Below are positions 1,780 through 63,614 of a stretch of DNA of 64,000 nucleotides, piece by piece. The position numbers and the translations under genes were made by a program. The DNA comes from Bacillota bacterium (lineage in GTDB: Bacteria > Bacillota > Sulfobacillia > Sulfobacillales > JAIMBI01). Within the stretch, counting starts at the first letter, position 1, and the number at the start of each line of letters is the position of its first letter. Below the pieces are notes generated by a model that did no database searches, had not been told where the DNA came from, and saw only the letters and a list, made by a program, of their open reading frames with translations. The stretch lies in the NCBI GenBank assembly GCA_021846505.1, contig JAJZWV010000009.1, positions 11,411 through 75,410 on the forward strand. The letters run 5' to 3'.

Positions 1780-2553
1780 TCACCGCGCCGCCAAAACCTC
1801 CGCCAGCGTGGCCCAGTGGATTCCCGCCGGCTCGAGGCCATCCTTCACGTGCTGCGCGAGCTGGGCGGCGCCCGGCGCATCCCCGTGGATCACCAAGGTG
1901 TGCGGCGCCACGGCAATCCAGCTGCCATCCGCCGACCGCACCCGGCCATCGCGGGCCAGGCTCAGCGCTTGCGCCAGCACCTCGGCCGGATCCTCCAGCA
2001 GGGCTCCCCGCTGCCCGCGAGGCACCAGCGTGCCGTCCGGCGCATAGCGCCGGTCGACATAGCCTTCCACCGCCACCGGCACCCCCGCGGCACGGGCTTC
2101 GGCCGCCAAGGCTCCTCCGGCCGCGACCAGCATGAGCCCGGGGCGAAAGGCGGCGACCGCCGCCGCAATCGCTCGAGCGGACGTCGGGTCCACCAGCGCG
2201 CGGTTGTATAGCTGCCCGTGAGGCTTCACATGCTCCAGGGTGATGCCCTCTGCTTGGCAAAACGCAGCCAGCGCGCCGACCTGATACAGCACCGCCGTTC
2301 GAATTTCGTCGAACGACCACTGCCAGTCCCGCCGCCCAAATCCTTCGAGATCGCGATAGCCTGGGTGGGCTCCCACGCCTACCCCCCGCTGCCGCGCCAT
2401 CCGCACGGTGCGCTCCATGGTGACGGGATCGCCGGCGTGAAACCCACATGCGACACTGGCGGAGGTGACCACCGCCAGCAGCGCCGCATCGTCTCCCATC
2501 CGCCACTGTCCGAAGCTTTCTCCCAAGTCGGCCGTCAAGCTCATCCAGTGCAC
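1780..2553 (-). CDS. pxpA: 5-oxoprolinase subunit A (LamB/YcsF family)
   Basis: 257-aa ORF with N-terminal LTADLGESFG...DD...SASVACGFHAGDP typical of the LamB/YcsF family. It follows pxpB and pxpC. Confidence 0.85.
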   Translation of the reverse strand: MHWMSLTADLGESFGQWRMGDDAALLAVVTSASVACGFHAGDPVTMERTVRMARQRGVGVGAHPGYRDLEGFGRRDWQWSFDEIRTAVLYQVGALAAFCQAEGITLEHVKPHGQLYNRALVDPTSARAIAAAVAAFRPGLMLVAAGGALAAEARAAGVPVAVEGYVDRRYAPDGTLVPRGQRGALLEDPAEVLAQALSLARDGRVRSADGSWIAVAPHTLVIHGDAPGAAQLAQHVKDGLEPAGIHWATLAEVLAAR

Positions 2554-2592
2554 TTCGGGCCCTCCTCTCGTCCGACAGCACCGGCCCCGCCT

Positions 2593-3510
2593 TTAAGCGG
2601 GCGGGACGGCGTGCCCCTCCTCATGCCAGGCGGCGATCGCCTCGTCGCGAGACACAATCGCCAGGCGAGCGGTCACCCCTGGAGCCCACTGCGCCACCAG
2701 GGGCCAATCGGCCGCGATCACGACCAGCGGCACGGGGTAGCCACCAGAGATGCCGCGGCCCGGCAGCAGCACCAGACACGTACCGTCCGGTGTCACCTGG
2801 ACGGCGCCTGTGACCATGGGGACCGACAAGCGCCGGCTCCAGGCCGCCGGGCCGACGCCCTCCCATGGGGACGGGCCGCCCTCGGGATCCAGCCGCACCC
2901 CTACACGGTCCGACCGCGCCGACACGCGGTAATTTTGGCGCGCGACGCGCGCCGCCAGCCCCCCGCTGGCGTCGGGCCCGGCCGTGGCGCGGACGGTGGC
3001 GCTCAGCCGGCACGTATTTTCGACAGGCCCACGCATCGCACCAGCGACGGGGGCGCCGAGCGGCAGAATGTCGCCCGTGGCAATCGGGCGCCCGAGGCCC
3101 GCAGCCAAGTCAACGGACCGGCTTCCCAGCCACTGCTCCGTGGCAAAGCCCCCATCGATGGCGATATAGGTTCGGGCGCCTCGCCGCGCAGAGCCGGATT
3201 CCAAGACAGACCCCGCCTCAGCGCGCACGGCATGCCCCGGGGGGACCGGGGCGCCGTTGACCCGGACTTGCATATCGGCGCCGGCCACACCCAACACTGC
3301 GGCGCCCGACAGCAAGAGCCGCGGGCCCACGAGCGTCGCCTCCAGCACCGCCGCGCCCAACGCATTCCCTACCAGATAGTTCGCCCAGCGCGCGGCCCAT
3401 GGGTCTGCCGCTCCGCCCGGCGCGACGCCCCGCGACGGGCCCTGCGGACGCCCGGAATCCTGCACCGTAGTCAGCAGGCCGGGATCCAGCACGTGCACCG
3501 ATCGCGTCAT
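2593..3510 (-). CDS. pxpC: 5-oxoprolinase subunit C (allophanate hydrolase subunit 2 / KipA-like)
   Basis: The ORF contains VLDPGLLTTVQDSGRPG, typical of AHS2. Start chosen at ATG 3510, which overlaps the pxpB stop as ATGA; the longer 3630 start is probably an upstream extension. Confidence 0.8.
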   Translation of the reverse strand: MTRSVHVLDPGLLTTVQDSGRPQGPSRGVAPGGAADPWAARWANYLVGNALGAAVLEATLVGPRLLLSGAAVLGVAGADMQVRVNGAPVPPGHAVRAEAGSVLESGSARRGARTYIAIDGGFATEQWLGSRSVDLAAGLGRPIATGDILPLGAPVAGAMRGPVENTCRLSATVRATAGPDASGGLAARVARQNYRVSARSDRVGVRLDPEGGPSPWEGVGPAAWSRRLSVPMVTGAVQVTPDGTCLVLLPGRGISGGYPVPLVVIAADWPLVAQWAPGVTARLAIVSRDEAIAAWHEEGHAVPPA

Positions 3511-4187
3511 GCAGGGGCTCCAGAGTCGGCCAACTCCTGAAAGCGATGGGCAGAAACGGGCCGAAACCAAAGCTCGTCGCCTGGCTGATACAGTGTGGGC
3601 CGCTCGCGGTGAGGCTGAAACAAGTTCCACGGGGTCGCTCCAATCACGTGCCAGCCCCCCGGCCCCGGCCGGGTGTAGACGCCGGTTTGCCGGCCCGCCA
3701 CCGCCACCGCGCCGCCGGCCACCCGCGGCGCGGGGTGGTCCCGCCGGGGAAGCACCAGTGCGTCGGGCAGGGGACCGGCGTAGGGAAATCCGGCCTGAAA
3801 TCCCAGGCAGTACACGTGATACGGCCGGTTCGCGTGCAGTCGCACCACGGTCTCTGGCGACAATCCGATCCGGCGGGCCACGGCGTTCAGATCAGGCCCC
3901 CACACCCCCCCATAGCACACCGGAATCTCAATGCGCTGGGGCGGCGCACCGCGCACCCCGGACCAGGCGGCCCAGCGCACGACCCCCAACACCTCTTCGG
4001 GCGCTGCCGCATCCGGGTCAAACTCGACCAAAAGCGTGTCAAAGCCCGGCACGACGGCCACTAGGCGAGAATCCTGCCGAGCCCGGTCCACCAGGGCCCG
4101 CGCCAAGCGCTGGATGCTTCGGTTCGCCGCGCGGTCCATCCCACTGTCCCATCGCAACAGCAGCGCCCGCTCCCCCATGGGGTCCAC
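3507..4187 (-). CDS. pxpB: 5-oxoprolinase subunit B (allophanate hydrolase subunit 1 / KipI-like)
   Basis: The P-x-G-E-R-A-L-L-L...VVPGFDTLLVEFD pattern is typical of AHS1. GTG 4187 has a GGGTGGG SD-like element upstream. Alternative starts are 4178, 4322 and 4400. Confidence 0.7.
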   Translation of the reverse strand: MDPMGERALLLRWDSGMDRAANRSIQRLARALVDRARQDSRLVAVVPGFDTLLVEFDPDAAAPEEVLGVVRWAAWSGVRGAPPQRIEIPVCYGGVWGPDLNAVARRIGLSPETVVRLHANRPYHVYCLGFQAGFPYAGPLPDALVLPRRDHPAPRVAGGAVAVAGRQTGVYTRPGPGGWHVIGATPWNLFQPHRERPTLYQPGDELWFRPVSAHRFQELADSGAPA

Positions 4188-4539
4188 CCGCGCCCACCCG
4201 CCAGGCGGCGCCGGCGGCCATGGCGCCGGCGCCCCGCCGCTTCCGGCACTGCCCCGACCTGAATCGCAAATACACAACTGCGAGAGCCCCTTCAATTCGC
4301 CGCCTACGGCTTGCCGCTCCATAAGTTCATGGTAACATGGCATTTGGTAGGACCACGTGCTGCTACTGCGCATGGTCAGTAGGCAGACTAGTGCACACAC
4401 CGCAATCCCCTAAAAGCTGTGATTTTTGCGAATCGGTGCAGGGGAAGCGCCCGGACGGCCACGCCGGCCGCTTGACGGCGGATGCGCCGGGGCTAGACCG
4501 GTGACAGACCCGTGATACACCTACGAGGAGGACAACAAG

Positions 4540-5184
4540 ATGCCTTTGCTGGACAGCTTCCGGCAGCTGACCGATGCCTTGTGGCGTGGGGCACCCGAAA
4601 CCTACGATCTGAAGCCTTTCATGGAGGAGCTGGCGGCTGCCTTGGGCTGTGCGGTGGAAGTCACCGCGCCGCTGGGCGAGGCACCGCTCAGCGCTGGCCC
4701 ACCGGCCGCCAACGGGCGCAGCGGATCCGTCACCCCTACCACCAAGATGGTGCTGCAGGGCCAGTCGGGCCCCACCGGCATCCTAACCCTCCACCGCGCC
4801 GAGACCGGGCTGTCCTCTGACGAATGGCTGCTGGCGGAGTATGGGGCGACCATTATTGCGCTGGTGATGGGGCGAGCCCGAGAGGTGCGCGCCGCCAACC
4901 GCGACCGCGAGCGTGCTCAAGTTTCGGCCGCTATCGAGGCCCTGTCCTATTCGGAGCTGATTGCCGCGCAGCGCCTATTTGCCGAGATTAACGACAACCA
5001 AGGGCTGGTGGTCACCTCGCACGTCGCCGATGAAATGGGGATCACCCGGTCGGTCATCGTGAATGCCCTGCGCAAGTTAGAAAGCGCCGGAGTGATTCAA
5101 ACGCGCTCCCTGGGCATGAAGGGTACCCACATCCGCGTGCTGAATGACCAGCTGCGGGCGGCATTTGAGCGCTTGACGCTCTAG
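4540..5184 (+). CDS. codY: CodY-family GTP/BCAA-sensing transcriptional repressor, shortened N-terminal domain
   Basis: The C-terminal block LSYSEL...GITRSVIVNALRKLESAGVIQTRSLGMKGTHIRVLN closely matches the CodY wHTH as I remember it. LAEYGATIIAL also matches. SD GAGGAGG lies upstream of the ATG. Confidence 0.8.
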   Translation: MPLLDSFRQLTDALWRGAPETYDLKPFMEELAAALGCAVEVTAPLGEAPLSAGPPAANGRSGSVTPTTKMVLQGQSGPTGILTLHRAETGLSSDEWLLAEYGATIIALVMGRAREVRAANRDRERAQVSAAIEALSYSELIAAQRLFAEINDNQGLVVTSHVADEMGITRSVIVNALRKLESAGVIQTRSLGMKGTHIRVLNDQLRAAFERLTL

Positions 5185-5198
5185 GCCGCACACCTTTG

Positions 5199-5229
5199 AG
5201 AGGGCGGGCGCCTCGGCAGCCCGCCCTCT
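5199..5229. terminator. 11-bp GC-rich hairpin between convergent codY and the decayed PLP-enzyme gene
   Basis: AGAGGGCGGGC (5199-5209) pairs with GCCCGCCCTCT (5219-5229) around a 9-nt loop. There is no clear U-tract on either strand. Confidence 0.3.
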
Positions 5230-5245
5230 GCGAGGCGGCGGCTCC

Positions 5246-6189
5246 TCAGTGCATTGCGCCCCTCAGGTCAACCGCCAGCGCCCCCACCAGGCGATCGCCA
5301 TACACCAGCTGCACAACATCGTGCAGATTGATCATAGTGCATACGTGGTTGGGCACCACCGAGAGGCGATCCCCGACCGCGAGGCTCATGGGGCCGCCAT
5401 CCGGCGCGCGAACAACCCCGTGCTCCTCCGACAGCGACGCGATGACGAGGTCGGGGGGCTCACGCAGGCGGCCGACTGAGCCCAGGACCGGCCCATCGCC
5501 CGCCAGCGTTTTGCTGCCCGCGTCCACCACGGCCCGATCCGGCGCCGGGGTGCTCACGACCGCGGTCCACACCAACGCGGCGCCGTCGGCCCACTCTGCG
5601 GCCTTCGCGGCCACCGTGGCGCAGTCGTTGCAAATATAGGTGCCGGGCCGAAGCTCCGTCGCCGCCGACAACAGGTCCAGGTGTCCCGTGGGGCCGCTGC
5701 CGCCCTCGGAAATCACAGCCGGTGCCCAGCCTCGCGCCGACAGGGCACGGGCCTACGCGGCCAGAACCGCATTTTCAGCCTGGAGGGCGGCCACACGCTC
5801 GCTGTCGGATAGGCGCCACGTGCGGTGGCCGCCAAAGCATGTCAGTGAGCGCCTCCTCCAAAGCCACGGCGTCCTCCACCTGCGCTACCCCGCATCGGTG
5901 AAGTCCGGTGTCTACCTCCACCAGCCACCGACAGGTCGGCAAACCCATGATGGGCCAGCCCTCGCGCCTCCTCCAACTTCGCCACCATAAGGGCACGGGC
6001 GCCCAAGTCCAGCTGCCGGCGCGCCCACATCACGCTTTTGTGCGTCTTGGCATGGGGCACGAGCACTTTGCCGCGGACACTCACTCGAGTCGCCATTCGG
6101 TCCAAATTGGCTTCCCCGATGCGCCGGTCCACCACCACCACGGGGGTGTCCAACTGCGCGACGCTGGGCTCCGTCTCAAGCTCCTCCAC
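5246..6189 (-). pseudogene. Decayed D-serine deaminase-like / D-threonine aldolase-like PLP enzyme (alanine racemase N-domain family)
   Basis: Homology is spread over three minus-strand frames. LDTPVVVVD...VPHAKTHK is in ORF 5842-6282. WLVEVDTGLHRCGV is in ORF 5775-5996. GGSGPTG...RPGTY...VVPNHVC is in ORF 5246-5716. An in-frame TAG sits at 5753-5755, and about 60 codons appear to be missing between GFADL and WLVEVDTG. Confidence 0.65.
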
Positions 6190-6232
6190 GCTTTCCGCTG
6201 CCGCTTCTCTGGTACGGTGGCGGGTGAGTCCA

Positions 6233-6946
6233 TCACAGAAGCTCTGTGCCCGCATCCCTCCATCCGCGGATGGCACGCGCATACAGCCACAGACCCGCCA
6301 GTCCCATGACGGCCTTCACCGCCACCCACCCCGGCAGCGGGGTCGGCCAGCGGTAGGCAAACACATTCAGCATCTCTAAGGGCGGCAGGCGGTAAAACAC
6401 CCCCAGCAGCTGAAGCACCAAGTCCATCACCGGCAGCCCAATGGCCACCAGATAGCCCAGCGCCACGCGCCCGGACGCGCTCGCCACCAGCGCGGCGCCT
6501 CCGCCCAACAGCAAGCCGGGCCCCAGGGCTGCCGCCAATCCTGTGGCAAACGGCACCGGTCCAAATGCCACGCGCAGCACGGTCAGCCACAGCAGCACCA
6601 AGAGCCACGCCCCGCCCACCAGCACCAGCATCCTCGCCCGCGCGACCCGCGGCATGGGAAGCGGGGCGGCCATCTCCAGCATGCCTTCGTCGTGCTCCAC
6701 CAGCAGCAGCGAGGCGGACCCGATGCCGAACCCCAGTGGAACAAATGCCTCGCAATTTTCTCCCCAGTGGCGGGCCCATTGACTGGAGCCGCCCCCGAGC
6801 CCGGTGTGCATGAGCGTAAGCACCACGAGCCCCAGTGGGACGAGGATCCACGGCGCGCCCCATCCCAGCTTCAGCTCCAGAGCCATGCGCCGCCGCGAAG
6901 CGCTGGCGGGGCGGGCCATCCCGGCTATGCGCCGCTTACGAGCCAT
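6233..6946 (-). CDS. Polytopic membrane protein, unknown function
   Basis: 237-aa ORF with several long hydrophobic stretches. It lies directly downstream of the 722-aa membrane protein gene, with an 18-nt gap. Confidence 0.5.
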   Translation of the reverse strand: MARKRRIAGMARPASASRRRMALELKLGWGAPWILVPLGLVVLTLMHTGLGGGSSQWARHWGENCEAFVPLGFGIGSASLLLVEHDEGMLEMAAPLPMPRVARARMLVLVGGAWLLVLLWLTVLRVAFGPVPFATGLAAALGPGLLLGGGAALVASASGRVALGYLVAIGLPVMDLVLQLLGVFYRLPPLEMLNVFAYRWPTPLPGWVAVKAVMGLAGLWLYARAIRGWRDAGTELL

Positions 6947-6964
6947 GCGTCACCTCCCGTTGAC

Positions 6965-9133
6965 TTACCCGGACTCTGCGGACAGCACGCTCGACCAGGT
7001 CAGGGGGCCACGCGCGGCCGTCTGCACGACGCGCGCGGTCATGGCGGCCCACGCGCTTGGGCTGGCCCCGGCGGCCCAACCCGCCAGCTGCTTCAATTCC
7101 CCCACCTGGGTGGGTGTCAGCCGCCCCAGAACCGGCAGCCCGCCCGGCCGCTGATACCCCGCCAGCGCCACCGCGCGAGCCACGGGCCCCCCCGCGTCCG
7201 CACGAATGACGGTGGCGGCCGCCAGCACGGGCACAATCGCGCGCCGCTCATCTCCAGCCGGAAATACCGACGGCCCAGGTGCCGCGGCGTTCGTGCTTCC
7301 CACCCCCAGCGCACTTTGCCACGAGGCGGCCGCCAAGCGCAGCCAAGGCGCCAGCGTGGTGGGCTGGCTGGTGGCGCATCCCCCGGCTACCAAGTCCACC
7401 GGCGCGCAGTAGGGAGAATGGCCCGGCAGGGCCACAAAAGCCGGCGTGACCGCGGGTGCCGTGAGCAGCGGGTCCACGACCAGCGGCGGCACCGAGCCGT
7501 CGTAGCCCGGCAGCCATCGCGCCAGGATTTGGTCCGCCGCCACGTAGGATGCCAGCGCCGCCGCTTGCAGCGCCGTCACTGGGCGGCGCGTGTACACGGA
7601 CCGCCCATCCACCCGCGTTGCGTGGTAGGGGCCCGACAGCCACAGCACTGCGGGCAGGATGCCCGGCGCGCCGGCTGCGGGCACGGCACTCCAATGGGGA
7701 AGGCTCTTCGGCGTGGCCGTCACCGCCCACGACAGCGAGGTCGCGAGGAAAAGGGGCCGCCCAGCCGCTCCCCCGGCCAGCAGGCGCGGATACCAAGCGC
7801 CTCCCCCCGACCAGTACACGCGGCCGCCCCCGGCATAAGCCTCCCCGCTGGTGCCCCCGACTGGAAACGGCGGCGTGGGCAGCCAGGTCGCCAGCGGCAG
7901 CAGGCGGCCGCGGTATGCAATCTCGAGCGTCCCGCGCCCTCCCGGCACGCGGACGGCCACCAGCCGCGCGGCACTGCCCGGCAGCACGCGCGCGCCCTGG
8001 TGAGCGACCGGCACCCCTTGCCCGTTCCAGGTCGCCCGCGTCACGGATAAGCCGCGGTTTAGCCAGAACCACAGCAGCGACGCCCCGCCGCCGCGAGCAG
8101 ACAGCCGCACCCGCGCGACCCCCGCCACCGCCCCGGTGGCTGCACTGACCGACACGTCAAGTGATAGGGGGCCCAGCGCCGCCACGCGGCCGCCCGCAGC
8201 CGCCGCCGAAGCCGCCGACGCGGGCAGCAGGCCCGGCGACAGAGACAGCCCGGTCACCTCGAGCCACACCACCGCCAGCGCCAGCGCACCCAGCATGCCT
8301 TGGTGCCAGCGGCGATCGCGGGCCGGGTGCGCCGAGGGCGTGGTGCGCCTCCGATCGCGCTCGCGGATCGCGGCGATCGCCAGCAGTCCGGCCGCCGCCA
8401 GCCACACCGCCCGGTTGGCCCAGAGCCATCCGGGCGTCGGCCCCAGCAGCTCGGGAGGCAGCGCCAGCCCCAGGGTCAGCAGCCCTGGGAACGGGCTCCA
8501 CAAAAACAGGCGGGGGTCCAGCGCCGCCGCCAGGGCAACCCACTTGTACTGCAGGAACGCCATCACCAGGCTGCCCAGGATTCCCATCAGGAAGTACCGG
8601 CTCCCGCCACCAGTGCGGCCCGCCAGCCACACGGCCGCTGCGGCCGTCAGCACGAGGCTCGGCCCGACGGCCAGCAGGCACCACGCGGTGTCCCAGCCCA
8701 GTGCGCTCACCAGCGGCAAGCGCGCGAGCCCAAACAGCGCGAGGGATCCCATCACGTCCACCGCCGCCAGCATGAACGACCCAACCGCGACCAACCCCGC
8801 CACCCGCCCCAGCACGTACCCGCTGGCGCTGACCGGGCGCGCAAACACGGCCACTTCGGCGTCGGCACTGCGCCAAATTTGCCCCGCGGCCAGCACGATG
8901 GCGAACGGCACCAGCATGAGACACAGCGCCAGCATCTGAATCGCCCCGTCACCCGCGGTCGGGGACCCGATAGCGGCGGCGCCGGCCACCAGCGACAGCA
9001 CCAGCAGGCTCGCCAGCTCGGTCCTCACGACCACCTCCCGCCAACTTTGGCGCCAGGTGTCGCCGGCCAGCACCCACACGGCCGTGAGGGCACGGGGCCG
9101 GGCCCAGCTACCGCCGGGGGGCGCGGCGCCCAT
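6965..9133 (-). CDS. Large membrane protein: N-terminal multi-pass (ABC-2 permease-like) region plus roughly 400-aa non-hydrophobic C-terminal domain
   Basis: 722-aa ORF. The N-terminal half is dominated by hydrophobic helices; the C-terminal half is soluble-looking. No HEXXH motif. It overlaps the upstream ATPase stop, and the start is uncertain (9133 or a downstream GTG). Confidence 0.6.
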   Translation of the reverse strand: MGAAPPGGSWARPRALTAVWVLAGDTWRQSWREVVVRTELASLLVLSLVAGAAAIGSPTAGDGAIQMLALCLMLVPFAIVLAAGQIWRSADAEVAVFARPVSASGYVLGRVAGLVAVGSFMLAAVDVMGSLALFGLARLPLVSALGWDTAWCLLAVGPSLVLTAAAAVWLAGRTGGGSRYFLMGILGSLVMAFLQYKWVALAAALDPRLFLWSPFPGLLTLGLALPPELLGPTPGWLWANRAVWLAAAGLLAIAAIRERDRRRTTPSAHPARDRRWHQGMLGALALAVVWLEVTGLSLSPGLLPASAASAAAAGGRVAALGPLSLDVSVSAATGAVAGVARVRLSARGGGASLLWFWLNRGLSVTRATWNGQGVPVAHQGARVLPGSAARLVAVRVPGGRGTLEIAYRGRLLPLATWLPTPPFPVGGTSGEAYAGGGRVYWSGGGAWYPRLLAGGAAGRPLFLATSLSWAVTATPKSLPHWSAVPAAGAPGILPAVLWLSGPYHATRVDGRSVYTRRPVTALQAAALASYVAADQILARWLPGYDGSVPPLVVDPLLTAPAVTPAFVALPGHSPYCAPVDLVAGGCATSQPTTLAPWLRLAAASWQSALGVGSTNAAAPGPSVFPAGDERRAIVPVLAAATVIRADAGGPVARAVALAGYQRPGGLPVLGRLTPTQVGELKQLAGWAAGASPSAWAAMTARVVQTAARGPLTWSSVLSAESG

Positions 9134-45900: not shown

Positions 45901-45933
45901 CCAAACAAAAGCAGGACGGGTCACTCCCCGTCC
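45901..45933 (-). terminator. Intrinsic terminator/attenuator inside the infC leader (L20-leader-like position)
   Basis: Minus strand reads GGACGGG-GAGUGA-CCCGUCC followed by UGCUUUUGUUUGG, about 30 nt upstream of the infC SD. More stem-loops lie upstream (for example CGGAGCG-CGAG-CGCUCCG). Confidence 0.55.
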
Positions 45934-46020
45934 CAACCGGAGCGCTCGCGCTCCGCCGGATAACCTGAGCGACGATGCCGTCAGGTGAGAAGCGAACTTC
46001 TGCTTCACTATCACGTCCGC

Positions 46021-46049: not shown

Positions 46050-46333
46050 TCGCGGCGGCGGAAAATGCCCGGACTCAGCGTGCGCGGGCCCTGAAGCCAA
46101 GGACCCGGTGTCAAAGACCCGCTCGGGGGGACCTTCGCCTGCGCGAGACGGGTGCCCCTCCTCCGTCAAACGCCGCAAAAGTCTTGTGTCGGGTGCGTTT
46201 CTGTCTGTTATGCTCGTTGCATTCGCAGCGATTCGGATCCCTCCGTGCCACCCGCCGCAGAAGGCGCAGGGGGCGAGCCTGCGGGCTCCGGACCTGCTGC
46301 GTCTGCCTTCCAATGCTGGAGGAGGTGTGTCTG

Positions 46334-48268
46334 GTGAAGAAGCCATCGGTGCGCATCACGGAGCCTTGGGTGCGGGACAATGGCGCGCTGCGCCCCGCCA
46401 GGTGGGACGAGGCGCTGGAGCGTGCGGCCTCAGGGATGGAGCAATCGCTGGCGGCCGGGGGCCCCAGCGCGGTGGGGATGTTCAGCTGTTCGAAAGCTAC
46501 CAACGAAGTGAACTTTTTGGCGCAGAAATTTGCGCGAGCTGTGCTGGGCACCAACAACATCGACAGCTGCAACCGCACATGACACGCGCCCAGCGTCGTC
46601 GGTCTGGCGACGGTGTTTGGAGCAGGCGGCGGGACCAGCTCGTACGAAGAAATCGAAAATACCGACCTCATCATCTTATGGGGTTCGAACGCGCGGGAGT
46701 CTCACCCGATTTTCTTCCACCATGTGCTGAAGGGCATTCGGAGCGGCGCGCGCCTCATGGTCGTGGATCCGCGCCGCAGTACATCGGCCCAATTTGCCCA
46801 CCTGTGGCTCGGCCTGGACGTGGGCACAGACATCGCGCTCGCCAACGCCGTGGGGCGGGAAATTATCGCGGCTGGGCTTGTGAATCACGAATTCGTGCAG
46901 AAGGCCACTGAGCACTTTGACGCCTACCGCGAGTCCGTCGAGCCGTTCACGTTGGCGGTAGGGGAAGAACTCACCGGCGTGCCCCAAGACGCCATCCAGC
47001 AGCTGGCCCATGAGTATGCCCGGGCGCCTCGGGCCCAGCTGTGCTGGACGTTGGGCATCACCGAGCACCACAACGCCGTCGACAACGTGTTTGCCCTCAT
47101 TAACCTGGCGCTGCTGACCGGGCACGTGGGGCGCTACGGCTCGGGTCTAAACCCGGTCCGCGGCCAAAACAACGTGCAGGGCGGCGGCGACATGGGCGCG
47201 CTGCCGAACAAGTTCCCGGGGTTTCAGAACGTGGCGGACGCGGCCGTGCGCGCCCGCTTCGAGGCGCGGTGGGGCCGCGCCCTGCCGCCGAAGCCCGGCT
47301 GGCACCTGTCACAGATGTTCGAGGCCATGGAGCGCGGCGACCTCACCGCCCTGTACGTCATCGGCGAGAACCCCGCGCAGTCCGAGGCCGACGCGCACCG
47401 CACAGAAAAGCTATTGACCGGCCTTGGTCACTTGGTGGTGCAGGACATGTTTATGACCCGCACCGCGGAGCTGGCCGACGTGGTGCTGCCGTCGACAGCA
47501 TCGTGGTGCGAGGCCGAGGGCACGGTGACCTCGAGTGAGCGCCGCGTCCAGCGCGTCCGCCAGGCACTGGAGCCGCCCCTGGGCACGAAAGGCGATCTGG
47601 AGATCTTGTCGCTGCTGGCGGCGCGCCTCGGCTTCCCATGGGGCATGCCCACCGCCGAGGAGGTGTGGGACGAGTGCCGGAGCCTGTCGCCGATGCACAG
47701 CGGCATGTCCTACGGCCGGCTCGAGGCGCTGAAGGGCATTCAGTGGCCCTGCCCCGACGAATCGCACCCGGGATCTCAGTTTCTGCATGGCCGCCTGTGG
47801 GACGATCCGGTGGGCGGCCCGAAAGCGGGCTTCCACCCGGTGCAGCATGAGCCGCCGGTGGATCAGCTGTCGGACGACTATCCCATCCGCCTCACCACCG
47901 GCCGGCGGCTGGACTCGTTTAACACGGGGGTTCAGTCGGGGCGCTTCTCATCGCCGCTGCGCCGCCCAGAGACCCTCAACCTGTGCCCCGAGGACATGGC
48001 GGCGCTTGGAGTGGGCGAGGGCGAGGCAGTGGCAATCCGGTCGCGGCGCGGGCGCATCGAGGCGCCGGTGCACAGCGACACGACACTGCGGCCCGGCCTA
48101 GCGTTTATGACGTTTCACTTTCCCGACCAGGTTAACACCAACCTGCTGACCGTGGATGCGTGGGATCCGCAATCGGGCACGTCGGAGTTCAAGGCCACGG
48201 CCATCGCGGTTGAGCGGCTGGCCAGCGCCGAATCCTCCGAGCCACATGCCATAAAGGTGGGTGTCTGA
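46334..48268 (+). CDS. fdhA: Formate dehydrogenase catalytic (molybdopterin) subunit lacking the N-terminal Fe-S modules; in-frame TGA (46580-46582) read as selenocysteine
   Basis: ORFs 46184-46582 and 46613-48268 share a frame and are split only by the TGA. The context is NNIDSCNRT-U-HAPSVVGL. Downstream blocks are typical of FdhA/FdsA (LILWGSNARESHPIFF, VVDPRR, RGQNNVQGGGDMGALPN). GTG 46334 is preceded by GGAGGAGG. Confidence 0.8.
46594..46612 (+). promoter_or_regulatory. SECIS-like hairpin
   Basis: CGUCGUC-GGUCU-GGCGACG: 7 bp including one G-U pair, starting 11 nt after the UGA. The GGU CUG (Gly-Leu) codons form the apex at the same codon offset as I remember for E. coli fdhF. Confidence 0.6.
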
Positions 48269-50133
48269 TGGAGCGGCATCTCTCGGCCGATGCCGCGACG
48301 GCGGACGAGCGAGCGGCCGTGGACGCCATCCTGTCGCGGCCGCCCTCGCCGTGGGTGGGCGGCGAGCGCTCGCCGCACGCCCTCCACGCGGCGCGCCGCG
48401 ACGAGAGCGCCGTTCCGCCCCGCGACCTCCTGCTCCCGGCGCTGCGGGCCCTGCAGGCTGAAGCAGGCGGCGTCAGCCGAGGCGCGATAAGCTACTTGGC
48501 AGCCCGGATGGACCTGCCCCCCTCAGACATTTACGGGGTGGCGGCATTCTACGCGCTGCTGGACGTGGACGCTCCGCCCGAGGCGGGCGCTTCCGTGAAG
48601 GTGCACCTCTGCGACGACGTAGTTTGCCAGCTGGCCGGTGCCGAAAGCCTCATCGCCAAGCTGCGGGATCGCTACGGCGCTGAGGGCGAGCCCGCTGGCG
48701 GCGTCTCGTGGCACCGAAGCCCCTGCCTCGGCCAGTGTGATCGGGGCCCTGCGGTGCTAGTGCAGCGCGCAGGCACTTATGCGGCCGATATCGCCATCGC
48801 CTCTGCCACCGCAGAGGATGTCGCCCGCGCCATCGCGGATCCCACCCCGGCACCCACGCCGCCCGCGACCGTGCCGCAGGCCGGCGACGCGAGCTTGGTG
48901 GTGCTTCGCCGCATCGGCCGCGTGGATCCGGCCGACTTAGACAGCTACCGCCACGCGGGCGGCTACGAGAGCCTTCGCCGTGCCTTGGCGCTGGGTCCGG
49001 AGTCGGTCATCCAGTGGGTGACGGACTCGGGACTGCAGGGGCGCGGCGGCGCCGCTTTTCCGACCGGCGTGAAGTGGCGGGCCGTGGCCAGCCAAGCCGC
49101 CCGCACCCACTATGTGGTCGCCAACGCCGATGAGTCAGAGCCCGGCACCTTCAAAGACCGCGTCGTGATGGAGGAAGACCCTTTCGCCGTCGTCGAAGCC
49201 CTCACCATCGCCGGATACGCCACCGGAGCGGAGCAGGGCTTTATCTATGTGCGCGGGGAATACCCGCTCGCGGCGGCGCGACTCCGGCACGCGATTGCCC
49301 GGGCGCGCCAGCGCGGGTTTCTGGGGTCCAATGTGATGGGGCGCGGCCTTTCGTTTGACATCGACGTGCGCCAGGGCGCCGGGGCCTACATCTGCGGCGA
49401 GGAGACGGCGCTCTTCAACTCGCTGGAGGGTCGCCGCGGCGAGCCCCGCAACAAGCCTCCGTTTCCCACCGTGCATGGGCTGTTTGGCAAGCCGACCGCC
49501 GTCAACAACATCGAGACGCTCCTGAATGTCCTGGCCATCCTGGCTGTCGGACCCGAGCGCTTCCGCGCCGTCGGGGCCGAGGACGCCAAGGGCACTCGGC
49601 TATTTTCGCTCTCCGGCGCCGTCATGCGCCCGGGTCTGTACGAGGCGCCTTTCGGGACGCGGCTGGGCGCCGTCATTGACATGGCGGGGGGGCTCCGCCC
49701 CGGCCGGACCCTGCAGGCAGTGCTCCTCGGCGGCGCTGCGGGATCCTTTGTGGGGCCCGAGGCCCTCGACACGCCGCTGGCCCCGGCGGCCCTGCGCCCT
49801 ATCGGCGCCACGCTGGGCTCTGGCGTGGTGGTGGTGTTTGACGACACGGCCAACTTGAGGCACACCGTGCTGCGCATCGCTCGCTTCTTCCGCGACGAGT
49901 CCTGCGGGCAGTGTGTGCCGTGCCGCGTGGGCACCGTACGCCAGGAGGAGCTGGTGGCCCGCTTGGCTGCGGGCACGCCCCGCGGCTCGGCGGCCGACGA
50001 GATCCGGCTTTTTCACGATATCGCCCAGGCTATGCGGGATGCGTCGATCTGCGGGCTCGGCCAAACAGCCGCCAGCGCTGTAGACTCCGCCATCCGGCTC
50101 GGCATCTTGGGCCGCGAAGGGGGGCCCGCCTAA
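48268..50133 (+). CDS. NuoE-like (2Fe-2S) plus NuoF-like (FMN/NAD/4Fe-4S) fusion, diaphorase subunit of NAD-dependent formate dehydrogenase
   Basis: N-terminal CDDVVC...CLGQC thioredoxin-like 2Fe-2S pattern. Then GLQGRGGAAFPTGVKW, ANADESEPGTFKDR and ESCGQCVPCR. The ATG overlaps the upstream TGA. Confidence 0.85.
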   Translation: MERHLSADAATADERAAVDAILSRPPSPWVGGERSPHALHAARRDESAVPPRDLLLPALRALQAEAGGVSRGAISYLAARMDLPPSDIYGVAAFYALLDVDAPPEAGASVKVHLCDDVVCQLAGAESLIAKLRDRYGAEGEPAGGVSWHRSPCLGQCDRGPAVLVQRAGTYAADIAIASATAEDVARAIADPTPAPTPPATVPQAGDASLVVLRRIGRVDPADLDSYRHAGGYESLRRALALGPESVIQWVTDSGLQGRGGAAFPTGVKWRAVASQAARTHYVVANADESEPGTFKDRVVMEEDPFAVVEALTIAGYATGAEQGFIYVRGEYPLAAARLRHAIARARQRGFLGSNVMGRGLSFDIDVRQGAGAYICGEETALFNSLEGRRGEPRNKPPFPTVHGLFGKPTAVNNIETLLNVLAILAVGPERFRAVGAEDAKGTRLFSLSGAVMRPGLYEAPFGTRLGAVIDMAGGLRPGRTLQAVLLGGAAGSFVGPEALDTPLAPAALRPIGATLGSGVVVVFDDTANLRHTVLRIARFFRDESCGQCVPCRVGTVRQEELVARLAAGTPRGSAADEIRLFHDIAQAMRDASICGLGQTAASAVDSAIRLGILGREGGPA

Positions 50134-50134
50134 G

Positions 50135-51085
50135 ATGGCGCCGCCGTTGCAAGTGAAACAGCTTCCCGAGCGCATCGTTCACGCCACCATCGACGGGCAG
50201 CGGGTGGCGGTGCCCGAGGGCACGACCATTCTGGCGGCCTGCCGATCCCAGGCCGCCGAGGTGCCCACGCTCTGCTTTCTCGAAACGCTCGCCCCGGTTA
50301 ACGTGTGCCGGGCTTGTGTGGTGGAGGTGGAGGGCTCGCGCGCTTTAGTGCCCGCATGCTCGCGGCCGCTCGAAACGGACATGGTGGTGTCGACCCGCTC
50401 AAAGCGGGTCGACAAAAGTCGCCGCATGGTGCTGGAGTTCCTGGCGTCGTCAGTGGACATGAGCCTGGCCGGGCCGGATGTCGAGCGGTGGATGGAAGAG
50501 TACGGGGTGGACCCGGACCGCTACGGGCCTAAAGCCGCGGCTGGCGCCGACCTCGACGCGCGGGCTGGGCGCCATGGTCCGACCGTGGGCGCCGAGCGCG
50601 CCACCGCGGCCCAGCCAGTCAAAGTCGACAACGATCTGTACGTGCGGGACTACTCTCGCTGCATTCTGTGCTACAAGTGCGTGGAGGCGTGCGGAGACCA
50701 GGCACAGCACACGTTCGCGCTGGCCGTTGCGGGCCGAGGCTTTGACGCCCACATCGCCACCGAGTTTGAGGTGCCGCTGCCCGAGTCCGCCTGCGTGTAC
50801 TGCGGCAACTGCGTGGGGGTGTGCCCCACCGGGGCGCTCATGTTCAAGAGCGAGTACGACTTGCGCCAGGCGAATCAGTGGGACGAGTCGCGCCAAACCG
50901 TCACCGACACCATCTGCCCTTACTGTGGGGTGGGCTGCACCCTCGAACTCCACGTCCAGGACAACGCCATTGTGAAGGTGACGTCGCCGATGGATCACGA
51001 GGTCACCAGCGGCCACCTCTGCATCAAGGGGCGATTTGGGTTTGAGTTTGTGCAGCAGCGCCCCCCGGCCGCGGAGCCGCGCTAG
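50135..51085 (+). CDS. NuoG/FdsA N-terminal-like Fe-S protein (2Fe-2S, two ferredoxin-type 4Fe-4S motifs, MopB-type 4Fe-4S motif), no catalytic domain
   Basis: IDGQRVAVPEGTTILAA...CRACVVEV, CILCYKCVEAC, CVYCGNCVGVCP, and CPYCGVGC...GHLCIKGRFGFEF. The protein then stops after about 12 more residues. Confidence 0.85.
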   Translation: MAPPLQVKQLPERIVHATIDGQRVAVPEGTTILAACRSQAAEVPTLCFLETLAPVNVCRACVVEVEGSRALVPACSRPLETDMVVSTRSKRVDKSRRMVLEFLASSVDMSLAGPDVERWMEEYGVDPDRYGPKAAAGADLDARAGRHGPTVGAERATAAQPVKVDNDLYVRDYSRCILCYKCVEACGDQAQHTFALAVAGRGFDAHIATEFEVPLPESACVYCGNCVGVCPTGALMFKSEYDLRQANQWDESRQTVTDTICPYCGVGCTLELHVQDNAIVKVTSPMDHEVTSGHLCIKGRFGFEFVQQRPPAAEPR

Positions 51086-51250
51086 GTCAAAGTGTTCAGG
51101 CCAAGAGGCTCCCGGTGGTGGCTCGGAGTCTGTTGGGGCACGTCCTGAGGTCATCCCGCGGTCAGGCCTAAACCCATCCTTTGGCCCCAAGTGCGGCGTT
51201 GAACCCCGCACCGCAGGTCAGGTACGTGCTCCAGGCCAGCAGGTCGGCGC

Positions 51251-63362: not shown

Positions 63363-63437
63363 GCGGAAGTAGCTCAGTGGTAGAGCATCGCCTTGCCAAG
63401 GCGAGGGTCGCGGGTTCAAATCCCGTCTTCCGCTCCA
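63363..63437 (+). tRNA. tRNA-Gly (GCC)
   Basis: Cloverleaf folded by hand: acceptor GCGGAAG/CTTCCGC, anticodon loop TTGCCAA, T-loop TTCAAAT, encoded CCA. Confidence 0.9.
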
Positions 63438-63449
63438 ATTTTTGTTGTC

Positions 63450-63524
<75 letters not shown>

Positions 63525-63537
63525 ATCCAGCACAACC

Positions 63538-63614
63538 GGGCGGTTAGCTCAGTCGGTAGAGCGCTCGCTTGACATGCGAGAGGTTCAGAGGTTCGAGTCC
63601 TCTACCGCCCACCA
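63538..63614 (+). tRNA. tRNA-Val (GAC)
   Basis: Acceptor GGGCGGT/ACCGCCC, anticodon stem CTCGC/GCGAG with loop TTGACAT, T-arm AGAGG-TTCGAGT-CCTCT, encoded CCA. The variable region appears one nt longer than usual. Confidence 0.85.

Follow-up and report, generated by a model that had tools for sequence, protein, structure and literature searches.

An in-frame UGA followed by a SECIS-type hairpin points to selenocysteine in a split, NuoEF-linked formate dehydrogenase of a Bacillota bacterium

A formate dehydrogenase gene of a Bacillota bacterium is interrupted by a single in-frame TGA, and the question is whether this codon ends the protein or is read as selenocysteine (Sec). The gene lies in a stretch of 64,000 nucleotides (64 kb), the whole of which was analysed and is called the window below. 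A first-pass annotation had proposed that the enzyme is probably a selenoprotein. Conservation of the TGA, homology to Cys-containing enzymes, constraint on a hairpin just behind the codon and the agreement of this hairpin with bacterial SECIS elements all support that proposal. We consider it very probable, judging from comparative sequence data, that UGA 46580-46582 is decoded as Sec, with the hairpin at 46594-46612 as a bacterial SECIS, in a NAD-type formate dehydrogenase.

Reading frame and gene cluster

The features of the locus, with the evidence for each, are the following.

46318..46325, + strand: Shine-Dalgarno-like GGAGGAGG, 8 nt 5' of the likely GTG start (read from the sequence)
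46334..48268, + strand: gene 1, catalytic Mo/W-bisPGD formate dehydrogenase subunit (Pfam, NCBIfam, PDB relatives)
46580..46582, + strand: UGA probably read as selenocysteine, in a U-H-A-P motif (homologue alignment; TGA in 81/81 sequences)
46594..46612, + strand: putative SECIS hairpin (fold, pairing across relatives, synonymous constraint, covariance model)
48268..50133, + strand: gene 2, NuoE-like and NuoF-like fused diaphorase subunit (Pfam, NCBIfam)
50135..51085, + strand: gene 3, NuoG-N-terminal-like Fe-S subunit with a C-terminal Molybdop_Fe4S4 domain (Pfam, NCBIfam)

The open frame covers 46184-46582 and resumes from 46583 to 48268. Translation of 46184-48268 in one frame contains a single internal stop, which is also the only interruption of gene 1, so that the two ORFs noticed at first sight are indeed in the same frame and parted only by the TGA at 46580-46582 (+). 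The start listed for the second ORF, 46613, is merely the first GTG past the TGA. The codon stands in the context AAC CGC ACA TGA CAC GCG CCC AGC GTC GTC GGT CTG GCG ACG GTG, and the peptide around it is NNIDSCNRT-*-HAPSVVGLATVFG. The likely start of gene 1 is GTG 46334, which gives 644 codons including the one for Sec; an alternative is ATG 46313. In the closest relative (L003) the equivalent GTG is the sole candidate start. TGA terminates 19 of the 33 genes of the window and is thus the usual stop, which rules out a global reassignment of UGA. The window, which matches contigs of the ENA metagenome assembly ERZ27237466, also encodes CodY and an RsgI-type anti-sigma factor; together with an L20 leader and the best relative, both described below, these indicate a Bacillota member of high GC content.

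The peptide flanking the TGA had been assigned to the active-site block of molybdopterin formate dehydrogenases, and homologues bear this out, reading CNRT-C-HAPSVAGL in full-length actinomycete proteins and CARV-U-HGPSVAGL in E. coli. The E. coli block, quoted in the first-pass annotation as U-H-G-P-S-V-A-G-L, is found as such in MG1655 fdhF (VDCCARV*HGPSVAGL). The UGA sits at the metal-ligand position, in T-U-H-A-P, which conforms to the UHxP motif listed for Sec-containing FdhA in Table 1 of PMC13188914. Its column aligns with the active-site Cys of the actinomycete homologues and with Sec140 of E. coli FdhF.

Gene 1 matches the Pfam families Molybdopterin (E 3e-67) and Molydop_binding (E 9e-25). 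An Fe4S4 domain is missing from it; Pfam places Molybdop_Fe4S4 at residues 255-307 of gene 3, and a search of the other frames 5' of gene 1 for a frameshifted N-terminus found no Fe-S domain. The best NCBIfam match of gene 1 is to positions 52-672 of TIGR01591 (Fdh-alpha) at 632.3 bits, a little below the whole-protein equivalog cut-off of 666.25 bits, which presumes the N-terminal Fe4S4 domain and the catalytic domains in one chain, and residues 259-310 of gene 3 match positions 1-52 of the same model at 57.7 bits. Gene 1 would seem to work like Fdh-alpha, but as a split and permuted version. Gene 2, the start of which overlaps the stop of gene 1, has the Pfam domains 2Fe-2S_thioredx, Complex1_51K, SLBB and NADH_4Fe-4S and matches the NCBIfam models nuoF_fam and nuoE_fam; the domain matches include 2Fe-2S, FMN/NAD and 4Fe-4S sites. 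Gene 3 has Fer2_4, Fer4_Nqo3/Fer4_7 and Molybdop_Fe4S4.

The nearest solved structures of gene 1 are all formate dehydrogenases: 7qv7_S (T. kivui HDCR FdhF), 7bkb_D (M. hungatei), 1aa6 (E. coli FDH-H), 6tg9 (R. capsulatus FdsA) and 7e5z (M. extorquens). The matches always begin just past the Fe-S part of these proteins, and the C-H-x-P and RGQNNVQG blocks are conserved. The order Mo subunit, NuoEF and Fe-S subunit on one strand recurs in every one of the 74 related loci whose sequence is long enough, with the genes directly adjacent in 60 and separated by inserted DNA in 14. Domain content, the division of TIGR01591 between genes 1 and 3 and the structure matches together suggest a soluble, complex-I-module-linked formate dehydrogenase with a split and permuted alpha chain, presumably NAD(P)-dependent. 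No Moco riboswitch or other leader was found 5' of gene 1. A sub-threshold match to an L20 leader was seen on the opposite strand.

Conservation of the codon and of the hairpin

A protein search returned two groups of homologues. The closest are unnamed metagenomic proteins with 72-87% identity and about 510-580 residues (mostly 530-560). They begin just past the TGA, gene callers having cut at the same place. The second group consists of full-length proteins of 633-660 residues with 62-66% identity, which carry CNRT-C-HAPSVAGL and come from Saccharopolyspora, Nonomuraea, Nocardiopsis, Thermopolyspora and Streptomyces. Those of Saccharopolyspora, Thermopolyspora, Nocardiopsis and Streptomyces are annotated as 'molybdopterin oxidoreductase family protein' or 'NAD-dependent formate dehydrogenase catalytic subunit'.

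The comparison at the DNA level used 80 loci from one-genome-per-species contigs, with 66-83% protein identity; with the window they form an alignment of 81 sequences, 77 of them distinct. The best relative, with 83% identity, is titled 'Bacillota bacterium'. TGA occupies the column in all 80 related loci as well as in the window, under phylum labels that include Bacillota, Actinomycetota, Chloroflexota, Acidobacteriota and Dormiibacterota, among others, and further Gemmatimonadota, Rokuibacteriota, Methylomirabilota and Verrucomicrobiia. TGC or TGT without a hairpin, which in close relatives would speak against Sec, was found only in the actinomycetes at 62-66% identity. Two such genes read TGC CAC GCG CCG AGC GTG GCT GGG CTG GCC CAG (L088) and TGT ... 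GTG GCC GGC CTC TCG GCG (L089); they have GGG CTG and GGC CTC at the site, and no GGUCU or equivalent hairpin was found in them.

One competing explanation is a nonsense mutation in a pseudogene, with the hairpin as a chance product of GC-rich codons. The public gene calls, which split gene 1 into products of 89 and 551 aa, agree with it in showing two ORFs. However, all 81 sequences, under many phylum labels, share a TGA in this column, which is difficult to reconcile with such a mutation, and it is implausible that 80 assemblies made independently should contain one common artefact. To either side of the codon, moreover, residues are conserved while synonymous sites vary across the 81 sequences; codon 46574, for example, is Arg in 100% of them with every one of the four third bases in use. 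This pattern indicates that both halves are translated in one frame, under purifying selection.

The hairpin shows the opposite behaviour at its synonymous sites. Among the 192 four-fold codon columns of the gene, third-position entropy falls below 0.25 bit in only four, and all four are in the hairpin. The five codons at 46595-46609 form the gene-wide minimum, at 0.07 bits against a mean of 1.35 bits. They are Val 46595 (GTC in 80/81), Val 46598 (GTC in 54/54), Gly 46601 (GGT in 79/81), Leu 46604 (CTG in 81/81) and Ala 46607 (GCG in 70/71). Adjacent Ala, Pro, Thr, Val and Gly codons have third-position entropies of 1.5-1.9 bits. The hairpin Gly is GGT in 79 of 81 sequences, yet the conserved Gly codon at 46547 is mostly GGC (C in 60/74).

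The structure itself is as first described, a 7-bp stem with a GGUCU loop beginning 11 nt 3' of the UGA. The stem pairs 46594-46600 (CGUCGUC) with 46606-46612 (GGCGACG), including one G.U pair, and the loop occupies 46601-46605. The conserved core, 46595-46611, contains six pairs (46595-46600 with 46606-46611) that form in all 77 distinct sequences, whereas only 42 of the 77 have the outermost pair, 46594/46612. The pair types in the core include UA 57 / UG 20, CG 76 / GC 1 and UG 43 / CG 24 / UA 10, with no C-A. The change from CG to GC, in L065, is a synonymous double change and compensatory. Where the stem varies, an amino-acid change (V/A, T/A, A/T) mostly goes with it, so that with one clean compensatory sequence the covariation gives modest support on its own.

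From the 80 relatives, with the window left out, a covariance model was made and run on both strands of the 64 kb. It matched 46580-46617 with 64.9 bits (E 1.9e-16), the second-best score being 10.4 bits, and the window equals the model consensus at nearly all positions. The same model gives 18-24 bits for the Cys-type genes and about 6 bits for E. coli fdhF. Rfam returned no family match at the hairpin site even at E up to 10.

Folding of the single sequence is less informative. Free energies are -9.2 kcal/mol for the 19-nt hairpin, -13.7 for 46590-46616 and -18.0 for 46580-46625. For 46580-46625, ViennaRNA prefers a 10-bp register shifted by one base from the stem described above. This shifted register was dropped, two of its pairs being broken in 42 and 14 of the 77 sequences. 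A lower helix, 46591-92 with 46614-15, is weakly kept (45/77 and 69/77) and is not claimed. The fold of 46580-46640 (61 nt) against shuffled sequences has z = 0.39, and its minimum-energy structure pairs differently. With a GC content of 68.5%, the hairpin by itself is thus not above chance, which is the second point on the side of a chance product, and single-sequence folding was discarded as evidence. It is the comparative data that show the feature to be no product of chance. With its synonymous sites frozen in the 81 sequences, and the hairpin absent from the Cys-type homologues, we give the pseudogene reading almost no credence and retain that of a Sec codon with its SECIS.

The hairpin also agrees on all points with the published consensus for bacterial SECIS elements. 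The model, as quoted in a 2026 review (PMC13188914), has a loop of 3-9 nt, an upper stem of 4-16 bp, 16-37 nt between UGA and loop, a minimum free energy of at most -7.5 kcal/mol, and G at loop position 1 or 2, usually followed by G or U. Here the hairpin lies within the same ORF, 11 nt past the in-frame UGA; the loop has 5 nt; the stem has 7 bp in the window, 6 bp of them conserved; the distance from UGA to loop is 18 nt (46583-46600); and the energy is -9.2 to -18 kcal/mol. The loop opens with GGU, of which GG is invariant and U is present in 79 of 81 sequences. In PMC4605307 the SECIS is described as having a stem of 6-8 bp and, at about 20 nt from the UGA, a conserved G in the loop; the loop G residues of the window, 19-20 nt past the codon, agree with this figure.

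Selenocysteine machinery and proposed decoding

The tRNAs of the window are three (Gly, Cys and Val), and no tRNA-Sec was found in its 64 kb. SelA, SelB and SelD are absent from its called genes, and tblastn with the SelA/B/D proteins of the relatives found nothing in the window. Within 10 kb of the gene, the relatives have tRNA-Sec at 9 of 80 loci (L019, L045, L054, L062, L063, L068, L069, L070 and L079), and genes for SelD, SelA and/or SelB at 12 of 80, confirmed by Pfam for four. These neighbours link the clade to the Sec trait. At the remaining 68 of 80 loci the sel genes are likewise not within 10 kb, and their absence from the window is therefore uninformative.

The lack of sel genes and tRNA-Sec in the window would also be expected if the hairpin were a true SECIS by descent in an organism that had lost the Sec machinery, leaving a recent relic or a truncated product only. 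In the relative L087 the codon is CGA (Arg) and the hairpin is intact, so that the one can evidently be altered and the other kept. In the window, however, the TGA, the hairpin and both halves of the frame are intact, with 64.9 bits on the model of the relatives, and so are the two partner genes. As the missing sel genes are equally missing around most relatives, we regard a relic as improbable.

The residue inserted could also be other than Sec, namely Cys carried on tRNA-Sec at scarce selenium or Trp through near-cognate reading, in which case the protein would in practice be no selenoprotein. In the homologues from actinomycetes, Cys does work at this position. Nevertheless, an intended Cys would predict TGC or TGT without a hairpin, as in L088 and L089, and the conserved SelB-type hairpin together with linked selA/selD in relatives points to Sec. 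Insertion of another residue is accordingly rated as very improbable, more so than a relic.

Under the favoured reading, Sec insertion at the UGA, we infer the following course of events. The UGA at 46580-46582 would be decoded as selenocysteine, with the C-terminal winged-helix domains of SelB binding the GGUCU loop and the upper stem while the UGA is held in the ribosomal A site. SelB would then deliver Sec-tRNA(Sec), giving a full-length product of about 644 residues. In this protein, Sec would be a ligand of a Mo or W centre, beside the catalytic His (U-H-A-P). The catalytic subunit, the NuoE-NuoF fusion and the NuoG-like Fe-S subunit, which carries the proximal Fe4S4, may assemble into one soluble, NAD(P)-linked complex that acts as formate dehydrogenase / CO2 reductase.

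Relation to known formate dehydrogenases

The case is of a known kind, the commonest bacterial selenoprotein, and leaves the knowledge of Sec decoding unchanged; FdhA is the most widely distributed bacterial selenoprotein (PMC13188914). Its chief value is a correction of annotation. The public collections searched hold gene 1 and its closest relatives only as truncated, unnamed products, and as a result, both a functional formate dehydrogenase and the use of selenium would be missed in metabolic reconstructions. The 81 aligned TGA-SECIS sites also illustrate cleanly how an RNA element can be recognised from frozen synonymous sites, and the set could serve to flag the clade automatically.

In E. 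coli fdhF, as in the window, the UGA directly precedes the catalytic His in a block U-H-x-P-S-V-x-G-L, and the two proteins share the Molybdopterin / Molydop_binding fold family. The MG1655 gene (...CARV-U-HGPSVAGL) reads TGA CAC GGC CCA TCG GTT GCA GGT CTG, which confirms the earlier observation that GGU CUG (Gly-Leu) lies at the same codon offset, +7/+8; the loop is formed from these codons in both, and the hairpin starts 11 nt past the UGA in both. In E. coli the hairpin contains a bulged U, and its GGUC loop is closed by A-U. The element in the window has no bulge, and its GGUCU pentaloop is closed by C-G. The description 'fdhF-like' thus holds for codon offset and loop codons, but in structure the hairpin does not reproduce the E. 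coli element. E. coli FdhF further includes an N-terminal Fe4S4 domain and supplies hydrogenase 3, whereas the protein of the window has no such domain and its gene stands beside those of NuoEF-type partners. To judge from this gene content, the enzyme would not be of the FdhF/FDH-H type; it would be a formate dehydrogenase of the NAD type, split and NuoEF-linked.

Moorella thermoacetica is a Bacillota-type organism with a differently built, NADP-dependent formate dehydrogenase. Its fdhA hairpin has a regular stem closed by C-G, a GGUCU loop and the codons Val-Ala-Gly-Leu-Ala-Thr. The window hairpin may be nearly the same in sequence as this SECIS, and the element appears to be more like that of Moorella fdhA than that of E. 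coli fdhF, a likeness that serves as a lead only. Crystal structures of SelB with a SECIS (PDB 1WSU and 2UWM, cited in PMC4605307) were obtained with the Moorella FdhA element.

The Cys-type systems of actinomycetes are alike in having no Fe4S4 domain in the Mo subunit and in the order Mo subunit, NuoEF fusion and Fe-S subunit; they differ in having TGC or TGT in place of the TGA and in the lack of a SECIS hairpin. The split, permuted architecture is the sole mildly unusual aspect of the locus and lies outside the Sec finding. A limited literature search found no description of this arrangement, and the split of the alpha chain occurs in no solved structure among the PDB relatives compared. 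We suggest tentatively, as a possibility with the odds against it, that the Sec-type three-gene enzymes are a structurally uncharacterised NAD-linked subclass with the alpha chain split after Fe4S4 and permuted. This subclass would be spread across many phyla of mostly soil, aerobic bacteria, sometimes together with selABCD and tRNA-Sec, and would always keep Sec and a near-invariant SECIS.

The active-site residue of Rhodobacter capsulatus FdsABGD and Methylorubrum extorquens FoDH1 is Cys, and the beta subunit of FoDH1 is a fused NuoE-NuoF. These systems (6tg9/6tga for FdsABGD; 7e5z and 7vw6 for FoDH1) have a homologous catalytic domain (E 1e-117 to 1e-123) and the same kinds of partner modules, NuoE/NuoF-like and NuoG-N-terminal-like Fe-S. 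Their alpha subunit is one chain of about 960-990 residues that joins an Fe-S N-terminus to the Mo/W part, and the match to gene 1 starts at residue 308-368. In the window, by contrast, the break in the chain follows the Fe4S4 domain, the gene for the catalytic part comes first, and Sec would be the ligand.

Domain order of the formate dehydrogenase chain

The Fdh-alpha chain encoded at 46334-51085 of the window is both split and permuted, as judged from its Pfam and NCBIfam domain matches. Its parts are distributed over three genes as follows.

46334-48268, plus strand: gene 1, the catalytic part, matching TIGR01591 positions 52-672
48268-50133, plus strand: gene 2, a NuoE-NuoF fusion lying between the catalytic gene and the Fe4S4-bearing gene
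50135-51085, plus strand: gene 3, whose C-terminus carries the Fe4S4 domain, matching TIGR01591 positions 1-52

The same split order is kept in all 74 relatives in which it could be tested. It is also kept in the actinomycete loci of the Cys type, L088 (8001-12899) and L089 (8001-12655).

The selenocysteine column and machinery in relatives

At the selenocysteine column, one relative that is 71% identical (protein P0005) has CGA (Arg) in place of TGA. This locus, L087 (413-450), comes from a 2183-bp contig of a farmland metagenome (ENA ERZ1761205). Its SECIS hairpin is intact (GTC GTC GGT CTG ACG ACG) and scores 49 bits on the covariance model of the TGA-SECIS site. The CGA codon is either a recent T-to-C change, which would probably be inactivating, or a sequencing error. 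In L062, one of the TGA-bearing relatives, a single stop-free frame of 1218 codons (3837-7490, minus strand) spans the SelA and SelB domains and adjoins tRNA-Sec. This frame could represent a SelA-SelB fusion or two adjacent genes that happen to be in frame.

Surroundings of the operon

A gap of about 490 nt precedes gene 1, and a sub-threshold match to the L20 leader (45902-46011, minus strand; 33.7 bits at E = 1.5e-4, against a gathering score of 58.7) occupies some of it. The match lies upstream of the minus-strand infC-rpmI-rplT genes and fits a Bacillota origin. On the other side of the operon, two contigs of one ENA assembly, k141_39219 and k141_17966, both end at 50975-51115. They overlap by exactly 141 nt, the k-mer size of the assembler, and the window therefore spans an assembly-graph break just 3' of gene 3. 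This break does not affect the selenocysteine codon finding. One further feature lies at the window end.

63363-63614, plus strand: cluster of three tRNAs, Gly(GCC)-Cys(GCA)-Val(GAC)

The genes called in the window (1-64000) include none of the FdhD type (PF02634). Such a gene lies directly 3' of the operon in L089 and near it in L088. Beside the Cys-type operon of L088 (Saccharopolyspora antimicrobica), the region 2279-7518 carries genes for a TPP enzyme, for a protein of CoA-transferase family III and for an acyl-CoA synthetase-like product, a set that looks like a pathway of oxalate breakdown supplying formate to the dehydrogenase.
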